Assembly (NCBI GenBank): GCA_963678315.1
Contig: OY782781.1
Span: 2,048,001 to 2,112,000 of the forward strand
Source: Candidatus Cloacimonadales bacterium
Lineage (GTDB): Bacteria; Cloacimonadota; Cloacimonadia; Cloacimonadales; JAFGVF01
DNA length: 64,000 nucleotides
Reading direction: 5' to 3'
Shown here: positions 26,101 to 44,940 of the stretch, piece by piece
How the letters are laid out: every line of letters begins with the position of its first letter
How positions within the stretch are numbered: position 1 is the stretch's first letter
Notes under the pieces: generated by a model
Told to the model about the DNA's origin: nothing
The model's input: only the letters and a program-made list of their open reading frames with translations
The model's database searches: none
Program-made: the position numbers and the translations under genes

Positions 26101-27259
26101 TTTTACCTGTATTATCTAAAGAAACATTAAAATGGTTTGATTGACCAATCCCCACAGAAAGTTGATTGTCACTATATGGATTACCATTATCATTGAAGTA
26201 AAATCTTGCTGGTTCTTGAGGAAGTCCAGTATATGGATCTAAGTACTGTGGGTTTTCCATTGCAAAAGAGCTGTTAATAGCATAGTGTTCCCAAGTACCT
26301 TCCCCATAATTATCACAAATAAACACTTCTGTTTTAGCTTCTTCGATAGCATCATCGGCCTGAGTATCAGTAAAAGCAGTATGATGACCTATATAATAAA
26401 CTTTATCTTCATATACTTTTAAAGCCATGAAGGGTCTTCGCCACTCAGAAGAACTTACATTCCATTCATCCAATAATGGGATACTTGTTGATTCCCATCC
26501 ACTATTATCCAAGGATAAGAATTCCAGCACATTTTCTGTAAAGTCCTTATAAACAAGATAAATATTTTCTGATGAGCCACTTGTTCCACCATTGAAATCA
26601 GCATTTTTTCCCAAAATATAGAGTCGTTGACTGCCAGCAATTGGAGAAGGACCAATCTGAACTGAAGGCCAAATAAATTCATTAGTTGATACTGAAGTAC
26701 CATTGACATTGATAGTTATCGGATTATCAATAACAGTTAGAAGATCTGAATGAATTCCTATACAGCTGTTACCTATTAGGGCATCATACCCAGCAACAAT
26801 TTCTAAAGGGTAATCATCATCTTCATTTCTATGATAGGCTAAAATAGGCCTACCCTCGTTTGTAATGGCAAGGTCTGGATATCCTTCCCATACATCAGAT
26901 ACACCAAATGCAAAGTTTGAAATAACATTTCCATTTACATCAATAAATGCTTGATAAACCCGTCGATTCGTTGGGAAAGCAGGTTTTGTATGATAAACTA
27001 ACCAGTTGCCGTTAATGTTCCCTTCAACTCTTTGCATAGGAGAGCCATTATACGAACCAGGGAAATAGTCATAGTAATTGTCTATTAAAGATATTGGTTG
27101 AGTGAAAAACTCATATTCAGGTACATTTCTAGAATTTTGAACATTAGATTTAAGCTTTTTGCTATCAAGTTTTAAAGCTTTTCTAGGATCGTCAACACTT
27201 GCGTATACTATCCCTATTACAAAAAGAATAGTAATTGTTAAAAACAGTTTCTTAATCAT
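23189..27259 (-). CDS. Large secreted protein: N-terminal domain, carboxypeptidase-regulatory-like domain, three Fn3, cleaved-adhesin (choice-of-anchor J)-like domain, FlgD-Ig/T9SS-like CTD
   Basis: ATG 27259 with GGAGG and signal peptide; Fn3 W...GYNVYR...Y motifs; NDDWLIS; NYPNPF...VTWNGKDDAGRNVASGVYFYRL...KMILMK. Confidence 0.85.
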   Translation of the reverse strand: MIKKLFLTITILFVIGIVYASVDDPRKALKLDSKKLKSNVQNSRNVPEYEFFTQPISLIDNYYDYFPGSYNGSPMQRVEGNINGNWLVYHTKPAFPTNRRVYQAFIDVNGNVISNFAFGVSDVWEGYPDLAITNEGRPILAYHRNEDDDYPLEIVAGYDALIGNSCIGIHSDLLTVIDNPITINVNGTSVSTNEFIWPSVQIGPSPIAGSQRLYILGKNADFNGGTSGSSENIYLVYKDFTENVLEFLSLDNSGWESTSIPLLDEWNVSSSEWRRPFMALKVYEDKVYYIGHHTAFTDTQADDAIEEAKTEVFICDNYGEGTWEHYAINSSFAMENPQYLDPYTGLPQEPARFYFNDNGNPYSDNQLSVGIGQSNHFNVSLDNTGKIHMPTFYTVCKDDGSYYPDLHVIKDIIFDTNTLEWFVNDVYPRKADTPFNFTGNTSNPHDDYSPWLWWDKDGNGIIDEVLDDGSYDGIDDGITENDTDYWGQPVLYNIWPFMYWDENAADFAMQFHLQTARITEANEEGMMAIIWQDSDKARRYNSDPSTNPELADYAQMCDLVIAVSQDNGLSWSDPITLNGVDTAEMLGQIPEFPYPSTKIDYIIENADSTKVGRLYLSYLDDETYGSSIQSIGQQTGGSMEYTAIDITFPVPNTSGYVSNYVTVSGQLVDQYTDLGLEGQIVLTSSNEFQATSDSLGYFTIEGVPAYHTYTLTASAEGYDTYTTQFSPNNTDIDLGTIELFDTPAPPRDVSAVLEEDVVHITWSAPETTLSKSKTKTSVKVKAAKDRPMQGYNVYRFLASDFNNEDVWTLLNPEPLTDLTYNDSDINQLNDYYKYAVKAVYDGDRMSEPEISEIVWILNDVIVPPINLTVTVTLPNVVLNWQAPTRDTLLRSSKHKTSQLSCRKNDSRFLEGFNIYRDDQLIATVNQYTYTYVENGLANGTYNYYVTASYTEGESDASNVVSAFMFDTNHIYPPYNLTATVNENDVTLNWLPTIITIDIELISYKIYRNGFEIAELGPNILAYDDLALANNQYEYRVGALFSSGELAYSAPVVATVYLPNPEHILINDSFEEYDDFALELDNWLLVDGDLSDTYGLYSYTYTNEEYPMAYMVFNPSATTPPCTNEEALAHTGDKYLASFAAIGNQNDDWLISDAIEIGVDGYFNFFAKSFTYGYGNERFEVLVSSGSTDPNDFILISGDSYIEVPNEWEHYLYNLNDFTGQTIRLAIHCVSDDTIAFMVDDIIIESDMGVANDNSEQVLVTDLKSNYPNPFKPAEGGRSNGTRIDYSLSKKGPVKLQVYNLLGQKVKTLVNEINDAGNHSVTWNGKDDAGRNVASGVYFYRLKSGNTSKTNKMILMK

Positions 27260-27709
27260 GATGCCTCCACAGTCAATAGAATTAGCGACTAAGTCTAGAA
27301 TTAACCCCGAATGTATTATTTGGGATAAAGTCATAACTCTAGCATACTTACGACTAGTCTTAATCATGTAAGGATGATACAATTGTTAAAATAATTTATA
27401 AATATACCCTGTCTTAACTATTTAACAAAGATAACCATCTTGACTCTTATAACCAATATACTGAATTAGACTTCTCCTAGCTCTTTTAGCCTTTTTCAAA
27501 ATTAATCCAGCTTTTTAAATATGTCAAAGTATTTAATATAAAAATCTAATATATCTTTTTAAAGAGGTTGACTGAAAGATTTATGTAGGATGTTGTTTTT
27601 TGTAAGAGTGTGATTTACTTTGCGTAAGCATGAACCTAGTTCAACCTATCGGTGGATGCTTACACTCCTTCATCATCAATGCAGAATCTATCTGCACCGG
27701 ACTAAAATC

Positions 27710-27868
27710 TATGTCGTCCCTTTGGGACTCAATTCATTTATATCATTGTACATGGGGTACAAGACTCAGTCAAAGCCTGACACGGCCCTGGCTTAATACA
27801 TGATGACCTTTCAGGACTAATACATAACATCCGTTTGGGATTAATACATTATGACGTCCATTAGGAAC
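27710..27868 (+). repeat. Degenerate REP-like hairpin cluster
   Basis: TATGTCGTCCC-TTT-GGGACT at 27710; TAATACAT recurs at 27794, 27818 and 27842 (24-bp period), each followed by a decayed hairpin. Confidence 0.6.
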
Positions 27869-28007
27869 TAAATACCAAATAAGAGAACTATCCACGAATG
27901 GCACAAATTACCCTAATTAAAACATTATAATCACAAAGCATTTAGATAGTAGGCAAGTTTTGTCACTAACTCCTCATCTCTGTCCAGTCCTAAATAATTT
28001 GACTATT

Positions 28008-29477
28008 TTTTCGTGTTATTCGTGCTTTTCGTGGTAAACTTCTCTGTTTGCAGATAAAGCTTAGCCTTTATGTCGCCCTTTCAGGGCTTTTTTTATTTTT
28101 TAACTATTACATGGAGGGTAAGCCTCCATGCTTAGTATATGCCACCCCTTCGGGGTTTTTATGGATAGCATCTCCTCAATTCTTCATTCATCATTCTTCA
28201 TTTTTAATTTCTTCCCTTTATCCGTGCTTATCTGTGTAATCCGTGGCTAAAAACAATTAAGACTTTCTTCCCTTTATTCTTGCTTTTCGTAGTAAACTTC
28301 TCTGTTTGCAGATAAAGCTTAGCCTTTATGTCGCCCTTTCAGGGCTTTTTTTATTTTTTTAACTATTACATGGAGGGCAAGCCTCCATGCTTAGTATATG
28401 CCACTCCTTCGGGGTTTTTATGGATAGCAACTCCTCAATTCTTCATTCATCATTCTTCATTTTTAATTTCTTCCCTTTATCCGTGCTTATCTGTGTAATC
28501 CGTGGCTAAAAACAATTAAGACTTTCTTTCGTGTCTTTTTGTGTATTTCGTGGTAAACTTTCCTGTTTGCAGATAAAGCCTAGCCTTTATGTCGCCCTTT
28601 CAGGGCTTTTTTTATTTTTTAACTATTACATGGAGGGCAAGCCTCCATGCTTAGTATATGCCACCCCTTCGGGGTTTTTATGGATAGCATCTCCTCAATT
28701 CTTCATTCATCATTCTTCATTTTTAATTTCTTCCCTTTATCCGTGCTTATCTGTGTAATCCGTGGCTAAAAACAATTAAGACTTTCTTTCGTGTCTTTTT
28801 GTGTATTTCGTGGTAAACTTTCCTGTTTGCAGATAAAGCCTAGCCTTTATGTCGCCCTTTCAGGGCTTTTTTTATTTTTTAACTATTACATGGAGGGCAA
28901 GCCTCCATGCTTAGTATATGCCACCCCTTCGGGGTTTTTATGGATAGCATCTCCTCAATTCTTCATTCATCATTCTTCATTTTTAATTTCTTCCCTTTAT
29001 CCGTGCTTATCTGTGTAATCCGTGGCTAAAAACAATTAAGACTTTCTTTCGTGTCTTTTTGTGTATTTCGTGGTAAACTTTCCTGTTTGCAGATAAAGCC
29101 TAGCCTTTATGTCGCCCTTTCAGGGCTTTTTTTATTTTTTAACTATTACATGGAGGGCAAGCCTCCATGCTTAGTATATGCCACCCCTTCGGGGTTTTTA
29201 TGGATAGCATCTCCTCAATTCTTCATTCATCATTCTTCATTTTTAATTTCTTCCCTTTATCCGTGCTTATCTGTGTAATCCGTGGCTAAAAACAATTAAG
29301 ACTTTCTTTCGTGTCTTTTTGTGTATTTCGTGGTAAACTTTCCTGTTTGCAGATAAAGCCTAGCCTTTATGTCGCTCTTTCAGGGCTTTTTTTATTTTTT
29401 AACTATTACATGGAGGGCAAGCCTCCATGCTTAGTATATGCCACCCCTTCGGGGTTTTTATGGATAGCATCTCCTCA
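28008..29477 (+). repeat. Tandem array of ~5.6 x 260-bp composite units (REP-like hairpin triplet plus micro-repeats)
   Basis: ATGTCGC(C/T)CTTTCAGGGCT starts at 28070, 28328, 28589, 28849, 29109, 29369 (spacings 258, 261, 260, 260, 260); units nearly identical. Confidence 0.97.
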
Positions 29478-29514
29478 CTAACTTCTAACTCCTAACTCCT
29501 AACTTCTAACTCCT
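29478..29514 (+). repeat. Heptamer tandem repeat (CTAACTY)x5
   Basis: CTAACTT CTAACTC CTAACTC CTAACTT CTAACTC CT. Confidence 0.9.
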
Positions 29515-29516
29515 GC

Positions 29517-29565
29517 CTTAAGGGTCACCTTGAAAAATCGGCTTTTTTTCAAGGAGGCAAGTAAG
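29517..29565. repeat. Dispersed ~50-bp palindromic element, copy 3 (TGAA subtype)
   Basis: CTTAAGGGTCACCTTGAAAAATCGGCTTTTTTTCAAGGAGGCAAGTAAG. Confidence 0.8.
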
Positions 29566-29599
29566 GGACAAGTGTCTGCTATGTGTTATATGAAACTGA

Positions 29600-30817
29600 T
29601 TAATGTGAGAATCTATTCAAGAATGCAGTTATTTTATCTTTATGCAAACCCTTCAAGACAATTTGATGATTGCCTATTAGATTATCAACCCAAGAATCAT
29701 CTTCATTAATTCTCATAATAGCTTGAGTTCTACAAATATCTTTATTTCCCATACTAGAATCGATGACAGAAGCTTCCATTATTGAATAAGTTTGGTGGTT
29801 TTCTCCGATTCTTAGGATAGTAACATTTTCATTATTTAGATGACCATTGATTGCTAGATTAAGATTTGATTCCATGTGAGTATCTAAGGAAATCCTCTTT
29901 TGAAAAGCTAAGAAGTCAATTGGAACAGTACAATGGGCTAAAGTAAGAAGATTTTCTTCTGCGTCTATATCTGATACATTAGCCATCCAGCCAATTTGAT
30001 TAGTGATAGCCTTTGCTAAGACAAGAGTGTACAATGCTTGAGTATCTCCTTCACAACCGGCAATAAGACCATTTCTATTCAATTCTGCTAAGGCAAGACA
30101 TGCTGTAACCTTATGTTTTAGCAAATCGAAACATTTGATTGTTAATGCAGACAGTTTATATTTTTTTGTAATTATATAAAGGGCATAGTATAATTTAGCT
30201 GACTTTTCAAGTTCAAGCTTGTCTATATTACTTGTATTAAATGTATTAGACCATTTATCTAAAGTAGAATTGATATCATCAATTGAAGATTGATGATAAA
30301 TATCTAAGACTTCTTTTAATTCTATATTGATTAAATTTATATTGAAAGTAGGGGGGAAGTTACATCTTTTAGGTCCAATCAACCAATCAGAAATCCCACC
30401 AATTAGACCAAAGTTCATTTTAGTAATTTGTTGTGCTTTCTTATAAACCTCAATAATAGAATTGTAGTTTTCTCTGCATTGGTCAAGATTATCATATCTA
30501 AAATGAAACATTTCTACTTTAGGATTATCTTTATAATAAGTTCTTAACTCAATACTTGCAGGTAAAGAATTTTCATTATCAAATGCTACAATCAGGGATT
30601 TCATAGAAGAATTATCAATGATACTTTGTGCTAAAGACTCTGTTCCACCAGTTAAGATAAAGACAACAGAATAGATTATGTTTTCGTTAGCAAAATCTAT
30701 TCGCTGATTGTCATTAATAATGTTAATCTCTTCTGAGTAAAGATTATACTTTTTTAGTTTATTAAGAGCAAAATCATTACTTGATAAGCTAGAATGTAGA
30801 GCGAAATATTTTATCAA
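29600..30817 (-). CDS. L-fucose/L-arabinose isomerase-related protein
   Basis: TGGTE, NSLPASIE, ALTIKCF, GCEGD, AHCTVP, CRTQ, IGNHQ motifs; TTG start overlapping the rnr stop. Confidence 0.7.
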   Translation of the reverse strand: MIKYFALHSSLSSNDFALNKLKKYNLYSEEINIINDNQRIDFANENIIYSVVFILTGGTESLAQSIIDNSSMKSLIVAFDNENSLPASIELRTYYKDNPKVEMFHFRYDNLDQCRENYNSIIEVYKKAQQITKMNFGLIGGISDWLIGPKRCNFPPTFNINLINIELKEVLDIYHQSSIDDINSTLDKWSNTFNTSNIDKLELEKSAKLYYALYIITKKYKLSALTIKCFDLLKHKVTACLALAELNRNGLIAGCEGDTQALYTLVLAKAITNQIGWMANVSDIDAEENLLTLAHCTVPIDFLAFQKRISLDTHMESNLNLAINGHLNNENVTILRIGENHQTYSIMEASVIDSSMGNKDICRTQAIMRINEDDSWVDNLIGNHQIVLKGLHKDKITAFLNRFSH

Positions 30818-32943
30818 TCTTCCTCCACAATATCTAAATAAATATCGTCAGTAACAGCACTAACTTGCACATTTATCACTTGAGCTAATTTAAAAGATTT
30901 CTTAGATTTACGTCCTCTAATAATCATTCTTTCTTCATCCAAGATATAGTAATCACCAACAATATTGCTCATTCTTATTACTCCTGTAACAGGGAAATCG
31001 TTAATTGTAGCAAATATATTAGATTTGTTCATACCAGTAATTACAGCTTGATATTCATTTCCTACACGGTCGTGCATAAAATACATTATCATCTTTTTCA
31101 TAATATCTCGGTAAGCTGAATCACTTAATATCTCTCTTTCCGTAGCTATCTGGGCAAATTCTTTCAATTTTACATTTTTGAAATTATAGCCTGATTTAGC
31201 TATAACATCCTTTAACTGATGGTGAATAATCAAGTCAGATAAACGTCTGATTGGAGAAGTAAAATGAGTGTAGTTTTGGATTGAGAGTCCAAAGTGTGCT
31301 TGGTTTTTAGTAGAATACTGAGCTTTTTTCATTGCTCTTAAAATCATTTTATTAAAGACTTTTTCTTCTGGCTTACCTTCAAACGATTTAAGCACTTTCT
31401 GTAAAACATGATTTAAAGTACCATCAAAAGTAATTTTATAACCATAAGCTCTTAGTAGTTTAGCTACTTTCTCAATCCTATCTTTATCTGGGAATTCATG
31501 AATTCTATAAATTGTTGTTGGACATTGTTCCTTTAGATAGCTAGCAACATATTCATTAGCAAGAAGCATGAAGTTCTCAATCAACTTGTGTGACTCAGTT
31601 TCTTCGCTTTCTGTAATATTAGCTAAATTACCTTCATCATCATAAATATATTCAATATCTGGAAGCTTAAAATTAATATAACCGCTTTCTTTTAGCTTAG
31701 CTGACAGCTTTCTAGAAAGTTCTCTAGCTTTAAAAAGCATGTCTTTTACTTCATCAGAATATTCAAAAACATCTTTATCAAACAAGGCATCAACTTCTTC
31801 ATAGTTTAAACGTGCATCAGAGAGAATAATAGATTCTGTAGCAGACTGTTCAATGATATTAAGATTTGTATCAAATCTTGTTACTACTGTAAGAGTCAGC
31901 TTCTCTTCATCAGGTCTGAGTGAACATAAACCATTAGAAATTTGTTCAGGTAACATAGGAATAACTCTCTTAGGAAAGTAAAAACTATTACCTCTTTGAC
32001 AAGCTTCGGTAAAGACCTTCATTCTAGGTTTAACGTAATGTCCTACATCAGCAATATGCACATACAATGTAGAGCCGTTTTCATCTTGAGTATATGAAAT
32101 AGCATCATCATAGTCTTTAGCGGTGATGGGATCAATGGTTATTGTAAGAAGGTCTCTATAGTCAGCTCTTTTAGCTATCTCATAGTAAGTTATATCCTTA
32201 TCAATAGAATTAACTTCCTCAATGATATCTTCTTCAAAAGATAGAGGTAAATCATATTGCTCGATTACTCCAAGAACTTCTATATCTGGATCATGTGCAT
32301 TTCCTAAAACATCTAGAACTGACCCTTTAGGCAATACTCCAGAATGATAATTACCCCAATTGTCTATCTGAATCTTTACCTTTTTATTGTTTATATCTTC
32401 TTGTTTGTAAGGCTTAACCTTAATCGATGAGTGTATTTTGTGATTATCACAAATGAAAAGATATTCATTATTGACAAGAGTAACATTACCTACCATCTCT
32501 TGGTTAACTCGGCTGGTAATCTTTCTTACAACACCATATTTCTTATCTTTACGTGATTTGTAAGGCTCAATTAAAACTATGTCTCCGTGAAAAGCACCAT
32601 TAGTATCTTCAATAGAAATAAAGTAGTCAGACTCTTCAGTAATAACAAAGGCAAAGGAATAGCCTTTTGCTAAGGATGTTGCATCAAATCTACCTTCAAT
32701 CAAAATTTCATCTCTCTTACTGAAATTCTTTTTATTAGATGTTTTTTTCTTGTTCATGATAAAGAGTCTATTTCGCCTAATTAAAAAGCCACTCTTTTCC
32801 AGCTTATTCATAGTATCTTTAATATTTCTAAAGTCATGCTTTCTAATATTTAAGATTGAGGAAACTTCATTGATTGTTAAATTTGCTCCTGGATACTGCT
32901 TAAACAGTTCAACTATCTTTTTTTCTAAGTCTTGCTTATACAT
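30814..32943 (-). CDS. rnr: Ribonuclease R (VacB/RNase II family)
   Basis: N-terminal HTH, cold-shock domains, TIDPITAKDYDDAIS, HIADV, YTHFTSPIRR, S1 domain. Confidence 0.92.
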   Translation of the reverse strand: MYKQDLEKKIVELFKQYPGANLTINEVSSILNIRKHDFRNIKDTMNKLEKSGFLIRRNRLFIMNKKKTSNKKNFSKRDEILIEGRFDATSLAKGYSFAFVITEESDYFISIEDTNGAFHGDIVLIEPYKSRKDKKYGVVRKITSRVNQEMVGNVTLVNNEYLFICDNHKIHSSIKVKPYKQEDINNKKVKIQIDNWGNYHSGVLPKGSVLDVLGNAHDPDIEVLGVIEQYDLPLSFEEDIIEEVNSIDKDITYYEIAKRADYRDLLTITIDPITAKDYDDAISYTQDENGSTLYVHIADVGHYVKPRMKVFTEACQRGNSFYFPKRVIPMLPEQISNGLCSLRPDEEKLTLTVVTRFDTNLNIIEQSATESIILSDARLNYEEVDALFDKDVFEYSDEVKDMLFKARELSRKLSAKLKESGYINFKLPDIEYIYDDEGNLANITESEETESHKLIENFMLLANEYVASYLKEQCPTTIYRIHEFPDKDRIEKVAKLLRAYGYKITFDGTLNHVLQKVLKSFEGKPEEKVFNKMILRAMKKAQYSTKNQAHFGLSIQNYTHFTSPIRRLSDLIIHHQLKDVIAKSGYNFKNVKLKEFAQIATEREILSDSAYRDIMKKMIMYFMHDRVGNEYQAVITGMNKSNIFATINDFPVTGVIRMSNIVGDYYILDEERMIIRGRKSKKSFKLAQVINVQVSAVTDDIYLDIVEED

Positions 32944-33392
32944 TAATACCTTTTACCTATTTTTTCTTCGAGGAATGCTAACAAATCAGCCTTTTCTTCT
33001 TGTGTTTTAGAATACCTTATTGATGTACCTCTAAAAGGGTCTAATCTTCGTGGCTGACTAAAGGTCGAGAGCATAACTCCATATTTATCTGAATAAAAAC
33101 AACCAAAATCTGAGTATGGTCTTTCTATTTTAAAGAACCAATATCTTATCTCTACCTTCTTTCTAAAGAAAGTATATCTTGTTGGAATAAAGTATGTTGT
33201 AACAGATGTTACGATTAATAATATACCAATAATCCACCATAAACCTGGCAACTGCAGGGCGATGATTGTATATTTTAAAAGATATACAAAAACTAGCAGA
33301 AAAACTGATAGTAGGGCAGAGGTGCTTGGTCTATCAACAAATGGAAAAGATATCCAATCAAACTTAGGTTGATCATCTTTCTTATTGGACAT
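32943..33392 (-). CDS. Hypothetical membrane protein (2 TM)
   Basis: Two hydrophobic helices; coupled to both neighbours. Confidence 0.7.
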   Translation of the reverse strand: MSNKKDDQPKFDWISFPFVDRPSTSALLSVFLLVFVYLLKYTIIALQLPGLWWIIGILLIVTSVTTYFIPTRYTFFRKKVEIRYWFFKIERPYSDFGCFYSDKYGVMLSTFSQPRRLDPFRGTSIRYSKTQEEKADLLAFLEEKIGKRY

Positions 33393-34266
33393 TCAGAATC
33401 ATCTCCTTACATTTATCTATCTCTTCTTTTATAACCAAGATGTGCTCAAAGGTCGCAGGAATACTAAATTTAGAACCTAGAGTATTAGCTTCTCTATGCA
33501 TTTCTTGGACTATAAACATCAACTTCTTACCAGAAGCAGAATCGTCGTTTTCTAAGTTACTTAGGAACTTCTCAATGTGGTTTTCTAATCTAATTACCTC
33601 TTCAGTAACATCATTTTTATCAACATAGAAGGATGCTTCTATAACGACTCTTCTAAGAATTTCATCAGTGATATCACTCTGAAGTAGTTCTTTAATATTT
33701 GTTTTTATCTTATTGAATATCTGTTCTTTATAGTTAGGTATAATAGATCTTACTTCTTTGACACTGTCCAACATGAGAGCTAGGGAAGACCTAAAGAACT
33801 CTTTCATAGATTCGCCTTCTTCAAAAGCCATTTGCTGTTGTCTTTCCAAAGCTAATACTAAACATTCTAATACACTCTTGATTAATAAGTCATCATCAGG
33901 ATCTTTATTAGACTTCATTTCTATGATACCTTGATAGAGCAAGATACGATCGAGTGGAATTTCAGAATCTACTCCTAGTATTGAAGACGCCTTTTTGCCA
34001 GCTTCCCAGATAGCTTTAAGCTTTCCTTCATTAATCTTCATTTCAGGTTCAGATAAATCAGTAATGTTTATTCTACATTCGATAGAACCACGGTTTATAT
34101 ATTCTTTAACTTTCTTTGTTACTATTGGCTCTACGAATGAATATTCTTTACCAGAATAAAACTTAAAATCAAAGTATTTAGAATTTAGTGTCTTTATCTC
34201 AATTTCAATTTCATATTTCTCATTTACTAAGTTGGCTTTACCAAAGCCAGTCATACTTTTTATCAT
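33382..34266 (-). CDS. yicC: YicC/YloC family endoribonuclease
   Basis: MIKSMTGFG, DVTEEVIRL, GKKLMFIVQEMHREANTLGSK. Confidence 0.92.
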   Translation of the reverse strand: MIKSMTGFGKANLVNEKYEIEIEIKTLNSKYFDFKFYSGKEYSFVEPIVTKKVKEYINRGSIECRINITDLSEPEMKINEGKLKAIWEAGKKASSILGVDSEIPLDRILLYQGIIEMKSNKDPDDDLLIKSVLECLVLALERQQQMAFEEGESMKEFFRSSLALMLDSVKEVRSIIPNYKEQIFNKIKTNIKELLQSDITDEILRRVVIEASFYVDKNDVTEEVIRLENHIEKFLSNLENDDSASGKKLMFIVQEMHREANTLGSKFSIPATFEHILVIKEEIDKCKEMILNVQ

Positions 34267-44628: not shown

Positions 44629-44705
44629 GGGGGTGTAGTTCAGTTGGTTAGAACGTCTGCCTGTCACGCAGAAGGTCGCGAGTTCGAGTCCCGTCACTCC
44701 CGCCA
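44629..44705 (+). tRNA. tRNA-Asp(GTC) copy 1
   Basis: 77 nt cloverleaf, anticodon loop CTGTCAC, TTCGAGT, G73, encoded CCA. Confidence 0.97.
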
Positions 44706-44751
44706 TTTCATTAAGGTTTAACATAAATTATTAGATAAAGATACCCGAGTT

Positions 44752-44828
44752 GGGGGTGTAGTTCAGTTGGTTAGAACGTCTGCCTGTCACGCAGAAGGTC
44801 GCGAGTTCGAGTCCCGTCACTCCCGCCA
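44752..44828 (+). tRNA. tRNA-Asp(GTC) copy 2
   Basis: Identical to copy 1. Confidence 0.97.
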
Positions 44829-44863
44829 TTTCTTTATTTAGATAATAACTTTTTTAAACACCT

Positions 44864-44940
44864 GGGGGTGTAGTTCAGTTGGTTAGAACGTCTGCCTGTC
44901 ACGCAGAAGGTCGCGAGTTCGAGTCCCGTCACTCCCGCCA
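44864..44940 (+). tRNA. tRNA-Asp(GTC) copy 3
   Basis: Identical to copy 1. Confidence 0.97.

Follow-up and report, generated by a model that had tools for sequence, protein, structure and literature searches.

We analyzed a tandem array of 260-bp units located in an intergenic gap in the genome of a Candidatus Cloacimonadales bacterium, together with a distant gene that encodes a 150-amino acid (aa) protein of the Y1 (HUH) transposase family and is flanked by the same hairpins that recur in the array. The genome is represented by a single 2.99-Mb contig; the window, that is, the whole stretch of DNA analyzed here, is a 64,000-nucleotide (nt) segment of that contig (G000:C1:2048001-2112000). 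Coordinates with the G000:C1 prefix refer to the genome, those with an L number refer to individual loci, and all others refer to the window.

A tandem array of composite units

Tandem Repeats Finder delineates the array at positions 28001-29477, with a period of 260, 5.7 copies, 97% matches, 0% indels, and a score of 2761. The gap that holds the array spans 2217 bp, most of which the array fills, and the three adjacent genes are all encoded on the minus strand. The array, its leading segment, and the modules of the unit, denoted A to G by their place in unit 3 (28521-28780), are as follows.

28001-29477, plus strand: tandem array of 5.7 head-to-tail 260-bp units, the final unit stopping after hairpin 3 (Tandem Repeats Finder, sequence, and unit comparison)
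About 28001, 28261, 28521, 28781, 29041, and 29301, plus strand: unit starts
27981-28004, plus strand: 5' head of the dispersed element (TGTC-CAGTC-loop-GACT), in unit 1 only; the internal units have a diverged version
28521-28556, plus strand: module A (unit positions 1-36), three GTG-decamers ~10 bp apart (TCGTG..TTTGTG..TCGTGG)
28557-28585, plus strand: module B (37-65), 29 nt, always between A and hairpin 1, with a small ATAAAG/CTTTAT stem
28586-28620, plus strand: module C (66-100), hairpin 1 of the repetitive extragenic palindromic (REP) type, with the tag TATGTC, the stem GCCCT/AGGGC, and a T-run
28621-28648, plus strand: module D (101-128), middle 8-bp hairpin CATGGAGG/CCTCCATG, the first hairpin of the Acido-Lenti-1-like part
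28649-28680, plus strand: module E (129-160), REP hairpin 3, with the tag TATGCC, the stem ACCCC/GGGGT, and a T-run; the second Acido-Lenti-1-like hairpin
28681-28735, plus strand: module F (161-215), a 21-nt tail followed by an AT-rich tract with a 7-nt period (ATTCTTC/ATTCATC...)
28736-28780, plus strand: module G (216-260), a second GTG-decamer triplet (CCGTG..CTGTG..CCGTGG) followed by CTAAAAACAATTAAG

Every module is present once per unit, in the same order and on the plus strand, both by direct reading of the sequence and by a pattern scan that recovers, in each unit, the first GTG triplet in the form TCGTG/TTGTG/TCGTGG and the hairpins ATGTC-GCCCT-TTC-AGGGC, CATGGAGG-GCAAG-CCTCCATG, and ATGCC-ACCCC-TTC-GGGGT. 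The core of the unit, C-D-E, is ~90 nt long and consists of a tagged 5-bp hairpin, the 8-bp middle hairpin, and another tagged 5-bp hairpin, all on one strand. When the unit is folded as single-stranded DNA, the three hairpins and the small stem in B are predicted, with a z-score of -2.48. The 5' head is apparently a degenerate tag plus hairpin; given that a distinct head starts at 27981 on unit 1, the element begins about 27 bases before position 28008.

The ORFs (open reading frames) in the units vary in frame and length (63, 56, 75, 75, 75, and 56 aa) and are not conserved between units, and the three ORFs that were searched have no Pfam match at E<=1; on these grounds, a coding role of the array was rejected. 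Thus, the original prediction of a 260-bp array of several near-identical units, with the listed modules in the same order in each unit and no gene of its own, holds for this locus. A scan of 26500-31000 detects no Rfam family at the gathering score, and across the whole window only three tRNAs reach it.

Tagged hairpins and dispersed copies of the unit

A strict pattern for the tagged hairpin has 130 matches in the genome, compared with ~0.02 expected by chance, as calculated from the base composition (33% GC). The conserved tag at the 5' foot of the hairpin is TATGTC or TATGCC. Among the matches to tag and loop, 112 have perfect 5-bp stems, mainly of the types GCCCT/AGGGC (48), ACCCC/GGGGT (45), and GTCCC/GGGAC (15), which differ from one another by paired (compensatory) changes; the two common forms of hairpin 2, GGAGG.../...CCTCC and GGGGT.../...ACCCC, are compensatory as well. 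Both tagged hairpins of every unit of the array lie on the plus strand and, similarly, the dispersed copies carry C-D-E on one strand. With the replication origin and terminus placed by skew at ~0.74 Mb and ~2.02 Mb, respectively, the tag strand falls on the template of the leading strand at 29 of 41 loci (p=0.012); with the origin set at dnaA instead, it does so at 28 of 41 (p=0.028). Such a replication-linked strand bias suits single-strand transposition.

The 260-bp unit as a query yields 93 BLAST segments that group in 50 module clusters (~50 loci), all intergenic except for 5 that overlap ORFs from a crude ORF caller, which we judged to be spurious calls. Most copies are partial. About 25 near-identical copies, the product of a recent spread, consist of the 5' head TGTCCAGTCCTAAATAATTTGACTG followed by A-B-C-D-E, and ~15 copies, more diverged (77-95% identity), contain C-D-E or C-E only. 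The dispersed element ends 5' of TGTCCAGTCC and 3' of hairpin 3. Modules F and G are found only in tandem units or in one lone full-length copy; the loci that bear them lie at ~373 kb (2.6 units), 1119 kb, 1855 kb, 2623 kb, and in the window. The composite unit is in tandem at five loci, of which the four besides the window hold comparable arrays of 2-3 units. Dispersed copies abut heptamer tracts, the CCTTGAAAAA palindrome, and hairpins of other repeat families, which makes the intergenic DNA of this genome a mosaic, as in the bacterial interspersed mosaic elements (BIMEs). At many loci, the hairpin unit is trailed by (CTAACTC/CTCACTC)n tracts of very different lengths and by the CCTTGAAAAA...TTTTTCAAGG palindrome; the heptamer tracts look slippage-prone.

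A Y1 gene flanked by the hairpins of the array

The genome encompasses nine genes with a match to the Pfam family Y1_Tnp, in two size classes: three encode 150 aa and the other six, about 173-190 aa. None of the nine lies inside the window, and each is flanked by its own type of inverted hairpin repeat; these flanking repeats are also dispersed in the genome, where they intermix with the family of the array. The gene that carries the hairpins of the array, hereinafter the cognate gene, is the following.

G000:C1:1107162-1107614: cognate Y1 gene, 150 aa, 970 kb from the array, beside dnaA

The cognate gene has inverted copies of ATGTCGCCCTTTCAGGGC (hairpin 1) on both sides, facing outward (1107088-1107109 on the minus strand and from 1107622 onward on the plus strand), with D and E further out. 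The absence of a transposase from the window, the presence of the modules elsewhere in the genome (~50 loci and, for the strict hairpin pattern, 130 sites), and the existence of an HUH gene with matching hairpins on its flanks all agree with what had been predicted from the sequence of the window. The commonest 16-mer in the flanks of the cognate gene has 45-46 copies genome-wide; a mean of 41 has been reported for the 16-mers that flank REP-associated tyrosine transposase (RAYT) genes, compared with about 5 for housekeeping genes (PMC5581495).

The cognate protein aligns to the TnpA of IS608 (2a6m; E=1.2e-8), with both the HUH motif (NHIHIL) and the Tyr motif (KYIHNQKKHH) conserved, and passes the NCBIfam IS200 model NF033573 (63 bits; cut-off 55). 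The segment YIHNQKKHH fits the signature Y---Q--HH of TnpA-Y1 subclass 1.2, a group described as low-copy, with proteins of about 148 aa (PMC6006769), and by this motif signature only, the protein would belong to that subclass. The three 150-aa paralogs are 47-59% identical and each has its own hairpin variant; at this level of identity, they are not copies of an insertion sequence (IS).

The dnaA gene (L080:3056-4402, minus strand) sits between two of the paralogous 150-aa Y1 genes (L080:2220-5614, that is, G000:C1:1104220-1107614), one located downstream on the same strand and the other, the cognate gene of the array, divergent upstream. The 760-bp gap upstream of dnaA is full of hairpin repeats and contains one canonical TTATCCACA box. 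Altogether, six of the nine Y1 genes cluster within G000:C1 1,104-1,126 kb.

The same arrangement in other phyla and the Acido-Lenti-1 motif

A scan of one genome per species identified 44 loci that encode homologs of the cognate protein, with 29-58% identity in the best segment (33-52% for full-length matches), in Ignavibacteria, Cloacimonadales, Bacteroidota, Acidobacteriota, Verrucomicrobia, Planctomycetes, and others. The homologs carry a conserved C-terminal ...DYDERYIW. Among the 40 loci that were scanned against Rfam, 13 contain hits to the Acido-Lenti-1 motif (RF01687) at or above the gathering score, and in 10 of the 40, the hits point outward and are no more than 200 nt away from the gene, on both sides in six loci (L065, L059, L054, L045, L069, and L032) and on one side in four (L062, L030, L063, and L061). 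Within 200 nt of the homologous genes, 16 hits are oriented outward and 1 inward.

Read outward, the flanks of eight loci consist of the same three parts as C-D-E, namely, a 5-bp hairpin (often GCCCTTTCAGGGC), a 7-8-bp hairpin followed by CT, and, after ~10 nt, a second 5-bp hairpin. With a strict detector that accepts only perfect stems, 22 of the 44 loci have such an outward-facing three-hairpin unit on one or both sides: it is found in 12 of 42 flanks upstream and in 15 of 42 downstream, vs 2 of 42 and 4 of 42, respectively, in the inward control. For 15 aligned flanks, RNAalifold predicts hairpins 1 and 3, with changes on both sides of the stem in 6 of 10 pairs, and misses the middle hairpin because the MAFFT alignment offsets its stems; a direct reading of the alignment gives 8 different stems of 7-8 bp for this hairpin among 10 aligned lineages. 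The 13-nt stem-loop GCCCTTTCAGGGC beside the Y1 gene is identical across Ignavibacteria, Bacteroidota, Verrucomicrobia, and Acidobacteriota (L030, L032, L036, L037, L039, L046, L054, and L062; window 28589-28606), and the middle hairpin differs in each.

In the alignment to the covariance model, D-E matches the plan of the motif, that is, two hairpins joined by the linker GCU...UAUGYC, and the same UAUGYC linker is found in the RF01687 seed alignment (PMC2864571). In the genome that contains the window, 16 copies of D-E pass the RF01687 cut-off with 37.5-45.4 bits, and the array's own copies, at 20.7 bits, are below the gathering score of 37. Judging by this alignment, hairpins 2 and 3 are a diverged copy of the Acido-Lenti-1 motif. 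The motif was listed as a probable RNA by Weinberg et al. 2010 (PMC2864571), is filed as a small RNA (sRNA), and its function is called unknown in the text of two 2026 preprints. For Cloacimonadota repeats and palindromes, the titles and abstracts of the matches listed in our literature search include no work on such repeats.

Interpretation: a probable BIME-like mosaic with a cognate Y1 gene

In our view, the array is probably a non-coding and most likely selfish mosaic, similar to a BIME and built of DNA hairpins of the REP type, with a C-D-E core that is cognate to the Y1 gene. By analogy with TnpA-REP and REP/BIME in Escherichia coli, the Y1 protein would bind the tagged hairpins in single-stranded DNA and mobilize them. 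The original prediction offered a choice between a cassette amplified by a trans-acting HUH enzyme or by unequal recombination and an array processed into structured RNAs; the comparative evidence favors its REP/HUH part, and the option of processed structured RNAs finds no support. The link to RAYTs that was drawn at the same time holds in part: there is a Y1 HUH gene, but it is not a canonical RAYT. The array is ordinary in kind, a lineage-specific build of a REP/BIME-type repeat, and can be annotated as a REP/BIME-style repeat cluster rather than as a gene or an RNA operon.

A close parallel is the system of E. coli BIME-2 or atypical BIME arrays and TnpA-REP, the REPtron, as described in PMC3333891. 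The two systems share an extragenic mosaic of tagged hairpins and linkers, multiple copies in tandem with good conservation at any one locus, and a Y1 HUH gene bordered by hairpins of the kind found in the arrays. However, the unit analyzed here is 260 bp long, with three direct hairpins rather than a pair of a REP and an inverted REP, and has extra GTG-decamer and heptamer modules; the tag is TATGYC rather than GTAG, so that the repeats are analogous to REPs but outside the GTAG superfamily; and the protein, unlike TnpA-REP, belongs by its signature to class 1 (subclass 1.2, IS200-like) and does not reach the RayT model. With the system of REP doublets (REPINs) and RAYTs in Pseudomonas and enterobacteria, as presented in PMC3116915 and PMC5581495, the shared features are a high-copy 16-mer on the flanks of a non-duplicated Y1 gene and an intergenic population of near-identical copies, whereas here, the mobile unit lacks the form of an inverted doublet and the single 3-Mb genome has nine Y1 genes, each with its own type of flanking repeat.

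Similarly to the published RF01687 motif (PMC2864571), two hairpins are joined by the GCU...UAUGYC linker, but here the motif takes up the outer two thirds of a DNA repeat located on the flanks of a Y1 gene. The features given for subclass 1.2 in PMC6006769, that is, Y---Q--HH, the HUH motif, a length of about 150 aa, and low copy number, are all present here, and the homologs share the C-terminal ...DYDERYIW; that account describes a group generally without terminal structures and mostly from Cyanobacteria and Bacteroidetes, in contrast to the conserved flanking hairpins and many phyla observed here.

Elements of the IS200/IS605 family have subterminal hairpins with a short 5' tag, and their left and right ends lie on one strand. 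The cognate protein shares with IS608 and its relatives the fold and the catalytic motifs (2a6m), and both tagged hairpins of the repeat unit are on one strand, like the left and right IS ends. Unlike the direct ends of an IS, the units that flank the cognate gene are inverted; furthermore, there are no near-identical copies of the gene in this genome (the paralogs are at most 59% identical) and the tandem arrays contain no gene.

Several observations weigh against this interpretation. The hairpins of the unit are direct, not inverted as in REPIN or BIME doublets. The cognate protein scores only 30.1 bits against the NCBIfam RayT model NF047646 (cut-off 80), and subclass 1.2 is described as generally lacking terminal structures in the text of PMC6006769. 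Across the other phyla, RF01687 hits are otherwise arranged in 3 of 40 loci (L064, L048, and L033), 27 of the 40 have no RF01687 hit at the gathering score, and the strict detector finds no three-hairpin unit at 22 of 44 loci. Modules A, B, F, and G, which account for ~60% of the unit, are left unexplained by the REP model; the number of identical central units, three, comes from the assembly alone; and the proposed pairing of the Y1 protein with the hairpins is supported by comparative evidence only. Finally, the strand polarity of IS608 is the reverse of the tag-strand bias observed here.

The pairing within this genome is clean, with one Y1 gene bearing the hairpin on both flanks, 130 dispersed hairpins, and five tandem arrays, and ties together a Y1 subclass described as structure-less, an Rfam motif of unknown function, and a REP/RAYT way of life outside Proteobacteria. 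Provided that this link holds, RF01687 hits in genome annotation would be better read as DNA repeats. What is new here is the direct, tandem composite architecture in place of the inverted doublet, and the combination of near-identical dispersed copies with arrays makes this a good genome for testing how such enzymes move and amplify repeats.

A more elaborate scenario, tentative and rather unlikely to hold as a whole, is that subclass 1.2 Y1 proteins are active repeat handlers with a conserved three-hairpin single-stranded DNA unit as their substrate, the Acido-Lenti-1 motif being two thirds of that unit. The unit in this genome might have captured a GTG-decamer protein-binding module, giving rise to a new composite non-autonomous element that is spreading now (~25 near-identical copies), with a replication-strand bias, and forms arrays by enzyme-primed addition rather than by homologous recombination.

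Small RNA genes as an alternative

We also considered the array as a set of tandem sRNA genes, in which each unit would be an expression cassette, with the GTG triplet as a promoter or activator site, B and hairpin 1 as an RNA of ~60 nt that ends at the T-run, and hairpins 2 and 3 as a second RNA or a back-up terminator. There are, indeed, 12 terminator-like sites consisting of a hairpin and a T-run within 27400-29700, all on one strand, compared with 2.3 +/- 1.4 in shuffled sequences; 40 of 54 copies have A and B ahead of hairpin 1; and D-E resembles a motif filed as an sRNA, weakly in the array (20.7 bits) but above the cut-off in 16 sibling copies. However, none of the 5 sigma-70-like sites of 27400-29700 lies inside the array (a scan that covers sigma-70-like promoters only, and the promoter type of the host may differ). 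The family obeys no rule of orientation to genes: of the clusters, 15+11 are located between co-directional, 13 between convergent, and 11 between divergent genes (865+851, 210, and 210, respectively, in the genome background), and no rule was found across the clusters for the strand of the element relative to the strand of the genes. Single-mismatch stems include 4 with G-T on the tag strand vs 13 with A-C, that is, there is no signal of the G-U tolerance expected of a plus-strand RNA, and the RNA fold of B-E has a z-score of only -1.48. One RNA run (X18, oligo-dT, labeled as another organism) has 0 reads on the stretch, a result that carries no weight here. The inverted copies of the hairpins around the Y1 gene across phyla follow the logic of DNA repeats. 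We therefore regard sRNA genes as a very improbable explanation.

The intergenic GTG triplets face a gene start in 26 of 71 cases and a gene end in 45 of 71, at long distances, which also speaks against the cassettes; promoters as a general role of the triplets were rejected on this orientation.

GTG-decamer triplets and a possible binding array

In a third explanation, the GTG triplets are iteron-like sites for a nucleoid, replication, or termination protein, so that the array binds protein or structures the chromosome, and the hairpins are passengers. The build of the triplet is compatible with such a role: it consists of three direct repeats spaced by ~10 bp, is present twice per unit, and is conserved by itself in other genera of the family and order, where it occurs alone and, in related genera, forms short arrays; the repeat of module G is widespread by itself in related genera as well. 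The array also lies ~55 kb from the skew-defined terminus (~2.02 Mb), and the BIME linkers of E. coli bind IHF (PMC3333891). Against this, the 80 triplet matches in the genome, 71 of them intergenic, are scattered rather than concentrated at the origin or terminus; the triplets are not DnaA boxes (the box upstream of dnaA is TTATCCACA and the module has TTATCCGTG); and no candidate binding protein was identified. Furthermore, most of the dispersed copies are near-identical, with one triplet fused to the hairpin core, a pattern that fits recent spread better than conserved function. On balance, a binding array appears very improbable, and we treat the GTG-decamer and heptamer modules as linker motifs like, by analogy, those of BIMEs.

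The idea of an origin of replication with DnaA boxes was rejected by the positions as well as by the sequence of the module, which has TTATCCGTG in place of the canonical box TTATCCACA: the skew minimum is at ~0.74 Mb, dnaA at 1.105 Mb (0.36 Mb away), and the array at 2.076 Mb.

Growth of the array

Returning to the BIME-like mosaic, comparison of the units indicates how the array grew. Units 3-5 are 100% identical, and unit 6 departs from them at a single base of the A-E segment compared. In modules A and B, units 3-6 have private variants in common that are not found in units 1-2; the copy closest to them outside this array, in the 1119-kb array, is 96.2% identical. The true 5' head is on unit 1, and the A module of unit 2 is decayed. 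The identical units and shared private variants indicate that the array grew in place by copying of whole units, following one or more exchanges with another variant. Whole 260-bp units in the window could have been duplicated via unequal recombination or slippage between units or via HUH-primed unit addition, according to the model that Ton-Hoang et al. proposed for the amplification of BIMEs. In E. coli, BIME-2 form multiple tandem copies that are well conserved at any one locus and vary from strain to strain, and TnpA-REP-based models of amplification have been described (PMC3333891). By our own reading of the sequences, the junction of G with A is homologous to the junction of the head with A; together with the short arrays that the GTG triplets form on their own in related genera, this homology suggests that mispairing of triplets could have seeded the first duplication.

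An assembly artefact, with a true number of units lower or higher and the three identical central units being the assembler's guess, is hardly credible: units 3-5 are indeed identical, and the short-read contigs of three public runs (Logan contigs of X1, X2, and X6) stop at 27668 and restart at 29539, none spanning the stretch, but the differences among units 1, 2, 3-5, and 6 make at least four copies distinguishable, similar arrays of 2-3 units are present elsewhere in the genome, at four loci, and in a genome assembled as one 2.99-Mb contig, 1.5 kb would be well within the length of long reads, should such reads have been used. Read depth at the repeats is the sum over all genomic copies and so gives no unit count, and exact-pattern scans of metagenome contigs for the G-A and B-C junctions returned 0 matches each.

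Surroundings of the array and neighboring genes

The array is embedded in further repeat modules and flanked by the genes listed here.

27711-27728, plus strand: solitary REP-type hairpin variant (ATGTC-GTCCC-TTT-GGGAC) upstream of the array; a stem variant counted genome-wide as well
27751-27791, plus strand: long variant of the middle hairpin (CATGGGGTACAAGACTCAG...GCCCTGG), found also beside the cognate Y1 gene
27892-27912, minus strand: inverted variant of the GTG-decamer module (CCACGAA..CACAAA), with opposite-strand copies at other loci
29478-29514, plus strand: (CTAACTC)n heptamer tract, 5.3 copies; a similar tract lies behind many dispersed copies of the element
29528-29554, strand not assigned: palindrome CCTTGAAAAA..TTTTTCAAGG, a recurrent module of the repeat mosaics of this genome
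23189-27382, minus strand: left neighbor, gene for a 1397-aa secreted protein that bears a C-terminal sorting domain for type IX secretion; the repeats lie on the side of the gene start
29600-30817, minus strand: right neighbor, gene for a 405-aa protein without a Pfam match; its 3' end faces the cluster
30814-32943, minus strand: RNase R gene (RNB, CSD2, and OB_RNB domains), context only

The Pfam domains of the left neighbor are CarboxypepD_reg, FlgD_ig, CHU_C, and Por_Secre_tail. The relatives available for comparison of the locus represent other genera. The 405-aa protein has homologs in 3 of 11 relatives from the family, and in two relatives of another genus (L078:5980-7802 and L079:2594-4416), the gene for the homolog is separated by a 35-bp gap without repeats from a convergent gene for a 186-aa protein. 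The RNase R gene and the gene for the 1397-aa protein are not adjacent in these two relatives, so that the locus is not comparable; given their repeat-free 35-bp gap, the repeat-laden gap in the window coincides with a break in gene order.

The RNase R gene (30814-32943) and a gene for a YicC-like endoribonuclease (33382-34266) lie shortly past the array. In E. coli, RNase R degrades REP-structured mRNAs; we take the adjacency of the array and the RNase R gene to be a coincidence. The three tRNA matches of the window, with an identical score of 68.1 bits, are arranged in tandem at 44629-44937, with spacing of 123 and 112 bp. Elsewhere in the genome, seven IstB-like ORFs of 246 aa have identical scores (G000:C1:13673, 257846, 440336, 507252, 696957, 1112706, and 2587297); the one that was examined is paired with an ORF for a Mu/rve-type transposase, and these are probably seven copies of an IS21-family element.

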